NCBI GenBank assembly: GCA_023247055.1
Contig: JAHFHF010000008.1
Span: 733-64,732 of the forward strand
DNA: 64,000 nucleotides
Source of the DNA: Candidatus Omnitrophota bacterium
GTDB lineage: Bacteria; Omnitrophota; Omnitrophia; Omnitrophales; Aquincolibacteriaceae
Reading direction: 5' to 3'
Positions 30,001 through 36,000 of this stretch are shown in pieces (position 1 is the first letter of the stretch; each line of letters opens with the position of its first letter). Made by a program: the position numbers.

Positions 30001-33000
30001 TGGCAGAGCGGCAAAAAGTTTGGCCGTATCAATCACACTGCCGCCGCCGATGGCGAGAACAAGGTCAAATTTTTCCTGCCGCAGGCGTTTTAACTCCTCT
30101 TCGATAAAGGCGGCTTGAGGATTGGCAGAAACAGCCGCGGAAAAGAAAAAATCATAGGCCGCCAGCATTTCAAGCAGGCGCGGATAATGGGCCGAAGCGC
30201 GAAAAGAGCGCCCCCCCAGCACGACCAGGATGCGCTGGGGATGATACTCGGCAAGTACGGCGGAAAGGCCCGCAAAAGCGCCTTTTTCAATGTGGCAGCG
30301 GACAGGATTGGAGGAAAGCAGGCCCACGCTCAGGATTCGTCCAACGCGCTTTTAAAACGCTGGCTGATTTGTTCGGAAGAGTATTTGCTGGAAATCCGCG
30401 GAACTTTGTCCGCGGGGGTGCGGTTGATTTTAATCCGCAGTAAAACAGGGCCTGGACCGGCCAGAAAATCATTTAACGTGCGGCGCAGGCTTTTCTCATC
30501 GGCGGCTTCTTGCGCCTGCCGGTAACCGGCGGCTTTGGCGGCCAGGCAAAAATCCGTCGAGGCCGAGGTCGTGTCCTGGTTGCCGGTCGTTTCATAGGCT
30601 TCATTATCCAGAACGAGATGATAAAAATTTTTGGGTTGGTAGTGGCCGATGGCGGATAAAACGCCCAGATGCATCAAAAGTGCGCCGTCGCCGTCCAGAA
30701 TGACGACTTTTTTTTCAGGCCGGGCCAAGGCGATGCCAAGGCCGATGGCCGGTGCATGGCCCATGGATCCCTGCATATAAAAATTGCCCTTACGGTCCGC
30801 CGCACTGAAAAGTTCGCGCGAAGCCATCCCGGTCGTGGCCACGACGGCTTCATGGCCTTTTAAATTTTCCGCAATGATGCGGATTGCTTCAAGGCGTGAA
30901 AGCGGATACGCGCCCTTTTCCACGGAAACTTCATAGCTTCCCACGGTGTCTTTGCGTACAAAAAAAACACAGGGTTGATTTTTTTGTCCGATATAAACCC
31001 GGGCTTCATCCAACGCTTTCTCATAAGCGCCGGATTCCTGCGGCAAGTCGCTGAACGCAACGCCCATGGCGGAAAGCATACCGCCCATGGTCCGGCCGAT
31101 GATTTCATGCTGGGGCTCGTCGGCAACCCCGTAAGCGCGGCCGCTCACAAAAATAAGCGCGGGCAGATGGTAGATCATATTGAGCGATGTCAGCGGATTG
31201 ATCAGATTGCCCAGCCCCGAGTTTTGAATCATCACGACCGCTGGTTGTCCTGCCAAACAGGCCCCTGAAGCCAGCGCCAAGGCCGACCCTTCATTGGGCG
31301 CAATGATGTAGCGCAGGTCTTTGTCGCCGCGCACGCAGTTAATGGCGGATTGGAAGAATGAGCAGGGAACGCCTGTAAAAAACCGCCATTTGCGGGTCTT
31401 AAGCGCTTGGACAAAATCTTGGGGAGAAATCATAGGTCCGCTTTGTCATTGCGAGGAGCGCAGCGACGAAGCAATCTCAGAGATTGCTTCGCTCCCTTCG
31501 GTCGCTCGCAATGACAAAGGGAAGATGATTTGCTGCGGTTTATTCTAAGAAACGTTGGACAAATTTTCGGTGGCTTTGAAATATTGACTGACCCGGCGAT
31601 AATCTTCGAGCGAATGAATTTCCGACCAGCCGTGCTCGACTTCCATGCCGTAGATGGGCGTTCCGAGATCGATCATATACTGCAAGAGATCGGTCAGGCT
31701 GGCTTTTTCAACCGCAGAGGCCTCATAAAACGGCTTACCCTGGAATTTTTGCCGGGCTTGCTGCCAGGCCTCGCGCAGTTTTTGAAATCCGGTTTCCTGA
31801 AACAGCGCGATGCCCGCAAATTCACAGTCGGCTTTAGCGCGGTCCAGATTTTTGGCAATTTTGCGCACGGGTTTCAAGGTGTTGAGCGCCATGCGGCGGT
31901 TCTTTTCGCCCTCAGCCGGGTTTTCGGTCATAACGAGTTCCAGCGCCTTGCTGCGGGCCGGCAGCGTTTTATAAGCGCGATCAATGACCAGCGTGATGGC
32001 GTTCGGGCTTTTGAGCAGCAGACTGAGGACTTGACGGTCAAAGAGAATGTCGGAATAAGCGATCAGACATTTCCCTTTCAGGTTTTCACCCGCGCGCATG
32101 ACCGAATACGCCACATGCGTCTGGGCCCATTCCGGATTCGGAACGACGTTGATATTGTCGCCGCGGATACTCTCGCGTTTGTACCCGCCGATGACATGAA
32201 TGTCCGTTGCCCCGGCGCCGCGGAAAAGTTCGGCCTGGTGCTGCAAAAGGGTCTTCCCCGCAATTTCCAGCATGCACAACGGTTTGTCCTCCAGGAGCGT
32301 GCTGAAATCGGCATGTTTACGCGCGTCCCCGGCCGCAGGCACGATCACATGCATTTTTTCAGTTTTAAGGTATTTCGTCTCCGTATCTTTGAGCGTGCCC
32401 ATGCCCTGCAGTTCGAAGACTTCCTTCATTGAAGTGATGCGGGACTCCACTGCGGCCGTGGACCCCGTTTCATAAATGGATTTAAACGTTTCCTGCATGG
32501 CGCGGATGCTGGCGCGCAAGCCTTGATTGGCATAAATCACAATTTTAAAACCGTGCTCGGCCAATTGATCCGCCGTCACGTCATAATACATGGTGGGAAT
32601 GGCTACGAGCGGCAGTTTCCCTTTGTAACGTTTGGCAAACTCATAAATTTCATCCGGCGTATTGACTTTGGAGTGAATCACAAGGCCGTCGGCCCCGGCT
32701 TCGGTATAAGCCTGCGCGCGTTTTAAAGCTTCTTCCATGCCCCAGCCCGCAATCAAAGCCTCAATGCGGGCGATCACCATGAAATCCGCGCTGTGCTTGG
32801 CATTTTTGGCGGCTTCCAGCTTGCCGCAAAATTCCTCAATCGACGCCAAGTCCTGCCGTCCGGGAACAAAGCTGTTTACTTTTGGAAAATGCTTGTCTTC
32901 GATCACCGCGGCCGCCAGCCCCGCCGCCTCGTACTTTTTGATCATATGGATGACGTTGGCCGCATTGCCATAGCCGGTATCGCAGTCGCAAATCACCGGA

Positions 33001-36000
33001 ATACCGCAGGCATCATTCAAGCCGCGGGCGGCATCCAGATTTTCGGTCATGGTAAGGATATTGGCGTCAGGAACGACGTGTGCCGTGGAAATTTCAAGGC
33101 CGCTCGCCCAGACGCTGTCAAAGCCCGCCTGCTCGATCAGCTTAGCGCCCAGGCCGTGATGCGCGCCCATAACGCGTACGATTTTGCGGGTCTCTAAAAG
33201 ATTACGCAGGGCCGCCGCTTTATCACTCATTTGTGGTAATACTCTTTGTCATCTTGGACAATGCGCGCCGCATTGTCCGGACCCAGCAGGGAAAGTTCCT
33301 GACGCGTATCACTGCCGATGTTCTGGCCAAAGGTAATCGCCAGAATGCGCCCCAGGTTTTTAGGTTCCGGCGAATAAAAAGCATGCGGCACAAAGCCGGG
33401 GATCAGCCAGGAATCCCCTTCCGTAAAAATCTCCTCATGGACTTTGCCTCCAAACTCCCACAAATAGGCCACGGGTCCGCCGTGCAAAACCTGGGTGTAT
33501 TGGTGGAAAAAATGCCCGCGGTTCATGACAACGTCTTCGCGGCGGTGGAGGTGTAAAAGCAATTCGACCGGCTTGAAATTCGGCAGGGCCTGCGACATGC
33601 AGCGGTTCCAATAGGTGTATTGGGTCCGGCCGGCCCGGTCCTGGTCAAATTTACAGGCATCTTTGTGGCGCATGATTTTGATGCCGCGTTCCAGGTCATT
33701 GTCAAACGGCAGCAGGTCCCGCACGCTGACGTAAAAATATTTGGCCAGCAGTTCGAGTTCGCGCCACTCGGGCTTGGCTTCGCCTTTTTCAAGCGAGCGC
33801 AGGCGCGCTTCCGCAATTCCGGTCGTCTTGGCGACCATGGCAAAAGTATGCTTGACCTCATTGCGCCAGGCGTGGATCAGCCGGCCGTATTCGAGATAAG
33901 GCGTTTGCGCTGCGGTCGTATCACTCATGCGGTCCCTCCCCAAAGCTTGGTCAGATTCTCAAAATCCTGCAGCGTATCGATTTCGCGCCACCGCCCCGCC
34001 GTAGGCTGGCAGGTGACCGTAACGCCTTGATTGGTCAAATATTGTAGCATATCGGTGACATAGGCCTTTTCGAAAATGGGGGCCCGTTGAAAAGGCTTTC
34101 CGGAAAAAATGCTTTCAGCCTCCAGGTATTTTTTTCTGAACATCTCCGCGCCGGCCCGGCTGAATTTCATCATTCCAATGAATTCGCCGTGCAGAGGCCC
34201 TGACTGTCCTGAGATCTTGCCAATGCGCCGGACCTGCGGGGTGTCATCCATTTCAACCATCTCGGCCTCGGCCGGCGGATGATCCGTTCGCCCCTGATAA
34301 GCTTTCTGCCAGGCTGTATCCACCGCCAAAACAATGTCTTCCGGCGCCTGGAGCAAGTTGCGGGGCACGCTCGGCTCAAACCAGATGTCCGAATAAGACG
34401 CCAAGAGTTCATCGTCAAATTCAGCCGCGGCCTTCATAAGAGACCCTAAAATATTATTGCGCTCAAAATCATGGTTCCAGACATAACGGACGTCTTTGCG
34501 CGTAAATTTTTCACCCTGATAACCCCGGATCACCACGATCTCTGAGATACCGCAGCTGCGCAGGGCTTCAATCTGCCTATCAAAAAGCGTCGTCCCGCCT
34601 GAGCGGATGGCCATGCACTTCGGAAGGTCGCGGGTCATGGGACGAAGGCGCGTTCCCATACCCGCAGCAATAAGGATGGCTTTCATAGGACGTCTTTCCC
34701 GGCCGGCCATACTTCAGCCGGACCGGAATGAACTTATATTTTTTGGGCAACAAACATCCGGATGTCGAAAGGGTTCACGTAGAAGTTTGAATTTTGGCCG
34801 CTTTGGGGCTGAAAAAACTTTCGCAGGACGGCCGACAGGTTCCGGCTGTAGCAGCCAATGCGCCGTTTGAATAAATCCAGCGAAACATATTTGCCTTCAA
34901 ACTTGCTCATGACGACCCGGAATCCGCATTGCTTCAGCAGCTGCGTCATGCTTTTTCCAGAAAAAAAGAAAAGATGCTCTTCGTCTTTAAAACCCATCCA
35001 GCGTTCGCGGAAAAGCCAGTGCGTCAGACTATCCACATCCGGAGTTGCCAGCACAAGCCAGCCGCCGGGTTTCAGCAAACGGTAAATTTTTTCAAGATCA
35101 CGGCGGGGCTGACGCACGTGCTCGATCACGTCCCAAAGCGTCACAACATCAAAAAGTTTTTCTCCGGAAGGCTCAAAAGATTCTAACGGACCGCAATAAA
35201 CATCCGCGCCTGATTTGCGGGCGTAAGCCGCCGCGTAATCCGAAATTTCAATGCCTTTGACCTCCCAACCCCGCTCCCGCGCTACGGCAAGAAAAAAACC
35301 CGCCGCACAGCCAATATCCAAGACCCTTCCCGGCTTTGTTTGAAAACGGTCGATAGTCCGGAATCTTTTTTGAAAGGTCCGGCGGATATTTTCTTCATCC
35401 CGGATGTAATCATCATAGCCCGTGGCCACGGACTGGCGGCTGACAAAATAACTTTCGCTATAAAGTTTCTTAAGCGTTTCAAGGCTGGGCTGGGGAAAAC
35501 TAAAAATGAATCCGCAGTCTTTGCAGCGGTAGACTTTTTCGAGGTTGGGATAAAGCAGCTTCGCCTTGCCCGAGCCGCACAATTCGCAGCAAAGGCCGGT
35601 CCCGGCATCAAGACCTTCGTGTCCTGCTTTTTCAGATTTTTCTTTCATGCTTTCGAGGGTCATGAGTCATCCAATCCTGGGCTAGAAAAAATGATATTAA
35701 TCGATTAATTCAAAAATTTCAATCACATGTCCGTTGCGCTCACGACTGGCTAGATCCGTCCATAGAAAAGGCGCGCCCGTCAGCGGGACGGCAGACACCG
35801 GCCATTCTCTTGAATTATTTTTATAAGGACTGAACCGGGCAATCCGGCGGGCCTTCCGGCCGAGTTCGGCATAAAAATCCGGGTGTTGGTTCTTATTCAC
35901 TTTGGCAATGATGACGGTGCGAATTCCAAGGGCCCGGAGCGCATCCACGCTATAAGGAATCCGGGGCTGGGAAAACAAAAATCCGCCGGCCAAATCATCG

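Follow-up and report, generated by a model that had tools for sequence, protein, structure and literature searches.

Two sister nucleotidyltransferase domains, one free and canonical and one fused to PepM and rewired, in a phosphonate operon of a Candidatus Omnitrophota bacterium

Nucleotidyl activation has been taken as the general route by which phosphonates reach bacterial surfaces, and fusions of phosphoenolpyruvate (PEP) mutase (PepM or Ppm) to nucleotidyltransferase (NTase) domains have been counted as evidence for it. A stretch of 64,000 nucleotides from a Candidatus Omnitrophota bacterium (assembly GCA_023247055.1, contig JAHFHF010000008.1, positions 733 to 64,732), referred to as the window in the following, carries such a fusion protein, P0001, together with a separate LicC-like NTase, P0002, and raises the question of what two domains of this kind do in one phosphonate operon. 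The initial annotation had offered two distinct activated head groups or a sequential activation as answers; neither was supported, as the fused domain is devoid of the GxGxR signature, the PK lysine and one metal-binding Asp. Judging from the sequences, we lean slightly towards a reading in which the free enzyme would serve as cytidylyltransferase for a phosphonate that lacks an amino group and stems from 2-hydroxyethylphosphonate (2-HEP), while its fused paralog would not be a second canonical activator but more probably a ligand-binding or assembly module.

Among 1485 Ppm proteins, 33% were reported to be fused to PF12804 and 23.6% to PF01467, and gene clusters with a Ppm-fused NTase plus another NTase one or two genes away were depicted in the same study (Rice et al., 2019, Fig. 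3c; PMC6697681). Assays were performed there on separate enzymes only (Ari1348, Tde1415, LicC), and the role of the fused PF12804 domain was left open. In the literature after 2019, nothing on Ppm-fused domains was found beyond that study and Li & Horsman (2022). The combination of a fused and a separate NTase is documented, common and not new; new here are the sister paralogy of the two domains, the canonical state of the free versus the rewired state of the fused domain, the absence of GxGxR in a second fused family, and the identity of the gene in between as an oxygenase.

The genes in question form a tight series on the minus strand of the window, from the free-standing NTase gene through to an alcohol dehydrogenase gene, and are given here in the direction of reading, preceded by the gene directly upstream:

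34734-35663, minus strand: class I S-adenosylmethionine (SAM) methyltransferase, directly upstream, given as context (Methyltransf_23, E 2.9e-32)
33925-34686, minus strand: free-standing LicC-like NTase P0002, lineage S1, 253 aa from the ATG at 34686 (PF12804, PF00483)
33227-33928, minus strand: predicted single-module MPnS/HEPD-like oxygenase with a helix-turn-helix (HTH)-like alpha domain and a cupin, 233 aa (match to MPnS 6b9s)
32364-33230, minus strand: PEP mutase domain of P0001, residues 1-289 (TIGR02320, EDKHFPKVNS)
31545-32363, minus strand: C-terminal LicC/PntC-fold domain of P0001, residues 290-561 and stop codon (PF12804, fold match)
30330-31433, minus strand: Ppd, phosphonopyruvate decarboxylase (TIGR03297, 363.8 bits, cut-off 312.5)
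29203-30327, minus strand: iron-containing alcohol dehydrogenase (Fe-ADH; best NCBIfam match TIGR03405 Phn_Fe-ADH, 235.7 bits)

ATGA stop/start overlaps at 33925-33928 and 33227-33230 join the NTase, oxygenase and pepM-fusion genes. Counting upstream from pepM, the gene of P0002 comes second, after that of the oxygenase, and the separate LicC-like enzyme that the initial annotation had placed upstream in the same operon was recovered. The spacer of 111 nt between the pepM fusion and ppd (31434-31544) contains a long GC-rich inverted repeat.

In P0001, which has 561 aa and is encoded at 31545-33230 on the minus strand, a true PEP mutase is followed by a C-terminal domain of the LicC/PntC fold. 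PEP_mutase PF13714 covers residues 8-252 (E 7.7e-56), TIGR02320 scores 329.2 bits and thereby exceeds the curated equivalog cut-off of 319.55, and EDKHFPKVNS at residues 111-120 agrees with the catalytic motif EDKxxxxxNS by which Ppm was recognised previously (Rice et al., 2019; PMC6697681). The closest solved relative is 5unc of Streptomyces platensis (E 4.2e-103), on which the AlphaFold model of P0001, calculated with 63 relatives as input (mean pLDDT 88.4), was superposed by Foldseek with a TM of 0.95, an rmsd of 1.6 and 53% identity.

With the full model, Foldseek returned PepM/isocitrate-lyase matches only, and the second domain surfaced in a wider structure search. The fused domain is modelled with a pLDDT of about 90, and residues 290-553 superpose on PntC 6pd1_A (Z 26.3, rmsd 2.3, 222 aligned) and LicC 1jyk_A (Z 25.4, rmsd 2.3, 224 aligned), with 7d72_K (GMPPA/GMPPB) also among the structural matches (Z 21.8); sequence identity to LicC and Tde-PntC is only 16-19%. 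With 34.6 bits, NTP_transf_3 PF12804 matches residues 296-408 above its gathering score of 27, which places P0001 in the Ppm-PF12804 fusion class, and together with the superposition on the LicC/PntC fold this bears out the C-terminal NTP-transferase domain initially annotated on PepM. PF01467 had no match in P0001. The cytidylyltransferase domain of Fom1, with which the domain order had been contrasted, is indeed N-terminal but belongs to PF01467 (Rice et al., 2019; PMC6697681), so that the order does differ while two unlike domain families are being compared. Throughout the sample of 188 fused proteins (108 of the window type, F1, and 80 loci of a second family, F2, taken from a metagenome scan and AEP-type, that is aminoethylphosphonate-type, in appearance) PepM is N-terminal and the PF12804-type domain C-terminal, and hence the supposedly different order is the normal one for fusions of this type.

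In its catalytic motifs the fused domain deviates strongly from the canonical pattern. It reads AAGDARKHADF...DKPL, with EIH where EID is expected, and lacks the G-x-G-(T/S)-R signature, the PK lysine and the second metal Asp. The same changes characterise F1 as a whole, whose 108 members, with 41-79% identity in the fused domain, keep full length and a family motif set (IPAA(G/R)DH(R/Q)..D(K/R)PLCM, YSDILFDR, EFIG, GWSEIHSxEDY). In the signature region the second Gly is replaced by Asp in 93 of 108 and a 3-residue insert is present, the PK lysine is Leu in 93/108, and the second metal Asp is His in 92/108 with the preceding Glu retained, as is the first metal Asp in Y-S-D; P317, D394, E470, F471, G473, G534, W535 and E537 are invariant. 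Fold, first metal Asp, Glu and a large part of the acceptor-side surface are preserved in the domain, but it has lost the residues that clamp the nucleoside triphosphate (NTP; GxGxR and PK lysine) as well as the second metal Asp, and so it is unlikely to be a further canonical activator. Absence of the catalytic residues had been named beforehand as the mark of a degenerate domain; they are largely absent, yet a domain with a strongly conserved motif set of its own is not decaying.

P0002, by comparison, has the full canonical LicC/PntC-type catalytic motif set (AAGMGTRLRP...LPK, YSD, EID), with AAGxGxR, PK, YSD and EID invariant across 25 and 31 relatives. Its open reading frame (ORF) spans 33925-34710, with the ATG at 34686 as likely start and the ATG at 34710 as alternative. 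Pfam assigns PF12804 (E 4.4e-12) and PF00483 (E 9.1e-09); LicC 1jyk is matched with E 8.5e-12 by the single sequence and 8.2e-25 by the family profile, PntC 6pd1 with E 1.1e-13 by the family profile, and 7D72 (GMPPA/GMPPB) only as a weak PDB match with E 2.5e-4.

The two domains of the operon share 30% identity over 264 residues (E 3e-36) and are sister paralogs. A tree of 106 domains comprised four groups: the fused domains F1 and F2, the free enzymes of the window type (S1), and the separate NTases of F2 loci (S2); four long PntC-aminotransferase-like rows (3.4-unit branch) were disregarded. The domains fused to PepM all fall into a single clade (SH-aLRT 98), whose sister group is S1 (SH-aLRT 99); S2 is placed outside. 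The phylogenetic separation proposed as a check in the initial annotation was therefore achieved as far as the fused clade, S1 and the PntC-like S2 are concerned; LicC and Tde-PntC are represented in the tree by the S2 proteins, one of which matches Tde-PntC 6pd1 over its full length with E 4.1e-37, so that S2 stands for true PntC. The motif states of the four groups, in the order nucleotide signature, PK motif, first metal motif, and Glu with second metal Asp, are as follows:

S1 (free, window type): A-A-G-x-G-x-R invariant; P-K invariant; Y-S-D invariant; W-x-E-I-D invariant
S2 (PntC-like): G-x-G-(T/S)-R canonical; PK canonical; D/E-x-D; Glu and second metal Asp canonical
F1 (fused, window type): I-P-A-A-(G/R)-D-H-(R/Q); Lys replaced by Leu; Y-S-D kept; Glu kept, Asp replaced by His
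F2 (fused, AEP-like loci): no Gly-Thr-Arg, typically Glu-Glu-Gln (acidic/polar); P-K kept; Y-G-D kept; E-V-D kept

In S1, 51 positions are at least 95% invariant; F1 retains 30 of them and differs at 21, the latter including G9, G11, R13, K23 (Leu), E142 (Arg) and D237 (His) and hence the whole NTP signature. A separate NTase is present in 17 of the 20 F2 loci having at least 4 kb on both sides. In view of this count and of the synteny of the window-type loci, a non-canonical fused domain accompanied by a separate canonical enzyme is the rule in both fused families.

LicC D105 and Tde-PntC E104 mark a position in contact with the choline or AEP amine (Rice et al., 2019; PMC6697681); here S2 has Asp or Glu, and S1, F1 and F2 have an invariant Tyr. 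P0002 thus lacks the acidic amine contact of a strict PntC, from which it is also phylogenetically apart by its position outside S2, and the Tyr of the free lineage fits a substrate without an amine.

The gene between the two NTases (33227-33928) has only HTH families assigned by Pfam. Its product nevertheless matches MPnS 6b9s with E 3.1e-38, and this in both MPnS modules, as well as SaHEPD 6b9r (E 2.5e-29) and HppE (E 1e-9), and the equivalents of MPnS K28, R102, Y110, N145, H148, Q152, I184 and H190 are invariant in 23 relatives. From the marker set of MPnS, which consists of H148, Q152, F162, I/V184 and H190 (Lockwood et al., 2022, supplement), His, Gln, Ile and His are found at positions 148, 152, 184 and 190. 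The architecture of two modules in about 450 aa is absent, the protein being of 233 aa and one module. Its family comprises at least 163 clusters at 90% identity, all of 214-250 aa, with 63-85% identity to the window protein among the 120 best matches, and bears the public names "XRE family transcriptional regulator" or "hypothetical". As predicted from the conserved residues, the gene encodes a single-module MPnS/HEPD-like iron oxygenase and not a regulator.

The arrangement is conserved. At each of the 11 genome loci compared, which come from Omnitrophota, Planctomycetia, Nitrospinia and further metagenome-assembled genomes, the gene immediately upstream of that of the oxygenase encodes the free NTase. 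In nine of them the PepM fusion directly follows the oxygenase gene; the genomes of the other two encode Ppd and a PepM, the latter in an open frame of 564-575 aa, away from the module. The order NTase, oxygenase, PepM fusion recurs across several phyla. The Fe-ADH, which is likewise conserved beside the module in relatives (35-52% identity), is probably a phosphonoacetaldehyde reductase making 2-HEP, as its best family match indicates; with Ppd and a phosphonate-type Fe-ADH downstream of pepM, 2-HEP is the intermediate to be expected. SAM methyltransferase homologs with 32-33% identity occur 2-3 kb upstream of the module in two relatives (L003 and L007), and the window's enzyme may tailor the phosphonate or the glycan.

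Most likely the operon serves to decorate the cell surface with phosphonates and represents a 2-HEP-based variant of the known "Pnt" type, for which we infer substrates and product as follows. PepM, Ppd and Fe-ADH would lead to 2-HEP, which the single-module MPnS/HEPD-like Fe(II) oxygenase would convert to a C1 phosphonate, methylphosphonate being the best fit to the Ile184 marker. The free-standing canonical LicC-like enzyme would couple the non-amino phosphonate to cytidine monophosphate (CMP) for transfer to a glycan, and the fused domain would act as a ligand-binding module on PepM, sensing CMP-phosphonate or nucleotide, or as an assembly module.

Several observations speak against this reading. 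Fom1 is a precedent for HEP cytidylyltransferase activity in a domain fused to PepM (Rice et al., 2019; PMC6697681). The loss of motifs in the fused domain is no proof of inactivity, and the His that replaces Asp in F1 can still bind metal. Basic residues stand near the lost signature of F1, with R304 in 64/108 and Lys or Arg at 316, one position before the Leu, in 84/108. The signature of CMP-sugar synthetases is PAR..S.R..K, and the F1 form IPAAR.H.R faintly recalls it; together with the nearby basic residues this makes an unconventional NTP site possible. The oxygenase has Ala for the F162 marker, a position not relied on because the HMMER alignment is gapped by 1 residue there and MAFFT differs by one residue, and in a tree of modules its family groups with the N-module of the two-module protein P0238, outside the large canonical MPnS/HEPD clade. 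The Fe-ADH, at 235.7 bits, remains below the TIGR03405 cut-off of 423.7. Finally, TagF-like, sulfatase-like and CDP-alcohol transferase genes were absent from the 64-kb window at E 1e-3, and no phosphonotransferase was identified there.

The main rival is a sequential activation as in fosfomycin biosynthesis, in which the fused domain would cytidylylate 2-HEP, the oxygenase or further tailoring enzymes would act on or after the CMP conjugate, and the free enzyme would activate, or reactivate, the final product. Besides the Fom1 precedent, the fused domain is strongly constrained and keeps the YSD Asp and the WxE Glu, its conserved His and Asp could form another metal or NTP site, and fused and free copies co-occur almost always, an association that would suit two distinct substrates too. 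Against this stand the missing GxGxR, PK lysine and metal Asp, the Glu-Glu-Gln in place of G-T-R in F2, the fact that the remaining basic residues of the fused domain are not invariant, and the oxygenase, which retains the residues by which MPnS binds the free phosphonate (K28, R102, Y110, N145); we regard this course of events as possible but rather doubtful. Activation of two head groups, one a phosphonate and the other resembling phosphocholine or phosphoethanolamine, would agree with LicC being the best solved sequence match of both domains, yet the genome, at a completeness of 92.75%, yielded no homolog of LicD or choline kinase, a negative that argues against a phosphocholine-like second group and led to rejection of the phosphocholine reading; with the Tyr at the amine/choline-contact position of the free enzyme and the coupling of its gene to that of the phosphonate oxygenase (adjacent in 11/11 loci, ATGA overlap in the window), two head groups appear very improbable. 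That the fused domain is a functionless, decaying remnant could be read from the lost catalytic motifs, but it is hardly credible for 108 proteins that keep full length, family motif set and invariant residues around a confidently modelled fold (pLDDT about 90), and decay was rejected on grounds of conservation.

As to what the fused domain does instead, an analogy is offered by GMPPA/GMPPB (7D72), where a catalytically inactive NTase paralog binds the product and regulates the active paralog. By that analogy, we tentatively put forward, as a conjecture with less than even prospects, that PepM-fused LicC-like domains in general might be pseudo-nucleotidyltransferases which bind the CMP-phosphonate end product (or cytidine triphosphate) and gate PepM as GMPPA does GMPPB, activation always being left to a separate canonical enzyme. 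If this held, sensor and enzyme of the operon would be sister paralogs whose roles were split after duplication.

Should fused PF12804 domains lack the NTP signature as a rule, genome surveys that score fusions as cytidylyltransferases would overstate activation capacity and would miss what may be a point of control over the thermodynamically unfavourable reaction of PepM. The operon furthermore ties a canonical activating enzyme to a widespread, putative single-module MPnS/HEPD-like oxygenase annotated as a regulator, a link that would add non-marine lineages (Omnitrophota, Planctomycetia, Nitrospinia) as candidate producers of C1 phosphonates. Methylphosphonate is a precursor of methane.

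Some features of the relatives and of the wider locus deserve mention. Among the 120 closest relatives of P0002, 56 (P0404-P0501; L003:6826-7995, L011:6815-8026) possess an extra N-terminal canonical XRE HTH domain of ~110 aa, which P0002 itself and its nearest kin do not have; by analogy to BirA or NadR this suggests an enzyme and regulator in one protein. In L003, L005 and L011 a TagF-like gene lies upstream and a sulfatase-like gene downstream of the module (L003:5805-6782 and 11530-13194; L011:5557-6774 and 11525-13156), and L009 has a CDP-alcohol phosphatidyltransferase at 10819-11481; the TagF-like CDP-glycerol-type transferase, the sulfatase-like membrane protein and the CDP-alcohol phosphatidyltransferase are candidate phosphonotransferases of these relatives. 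In three related genomes a Ppd homolog away from pepM is split into adjacent alpha-like and beta-like ORFs, as in sulfopyruvate decarboxylase (G001:C26:14442-15442, G003:C16:8101-9092, G005:C49:63660-64650). A third NTase of the locus (44391-45122, minus strand) is an RmlA-like glucose-1-phosphate thymidylyltransferase beside RmlD-like and UDP-glucose dehydrogenase genes; it represents ordinary sugar activation and has no bearing on the phosphonate question. Instead of the TagF-like, sulfatase-like and CDP-alcohol transferase genes of the relatives, the window carries the SAM methyltransferase gene and genes for a PMT/ArnT-like GT-C and a Dpm1-like GT2 protein.

Among known systems, the Pnt clusters of Treponema denticola, Atopobium rimae and Olsenella uli (Rice et al., 2019; PMC6697681) resemble the operon in the PepM with a fused MobA-like NTP-transferase domain, in the separate LicC-like NTase one or two genes off, and in their surroundings of cell-surface glycan genes. 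They make AEP, however, and have a separate PntC with acidic amine contacts, whereas the window has an Fe-ADH and an MPnS/HEPD-like oxygenase; its separate enzyme comes from a different lineage, the sister group of the fused clade, with Tyr at the amine position, and PK lysine and second metal Asp are further losses of its fused domain. Fom1 of Streptomyces wedmorensis likewise joins PepM to an NTase-type domain in a pathway via 2-HEP, but its N-terminal PF01467 domain is of a different fold family than the C-terminal PF12804 domain without canonical signature described here. LicC, the CTP:phosphocholine cytidylyltransferase of S. pneumoniae (1JYK), and Tde-PntC (6PD1) share the fold of the fused domain and are the best sequence relatives of the free enzyme, with which they have every catalytic motif in common; different are the Tyr in place of the amine-contacting Asp/Glu and the absence of choline genes from the window's genome.

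GMPPA/GMPPB offers the same pairing of a canonical NTase with a paralog of the same fold and altered catalytic signature, though there is no close sequence relationship, the regulated partner here would be PepM and not the paralog, and a regulatory role would follow by analogy only. MPnS and class II HEP dioxygenase (6B9S, 6B9R) have two alpha/cupin modules versus one in the window's oxygenase, F162 versus Ala, and a place in the canonical clade versus the branch with P0238, but they share with it the 2-His-1-Gln iron site, the 2-HEP binding residues and the Ile184 marker, while its layout of one module resembles that of HppE.

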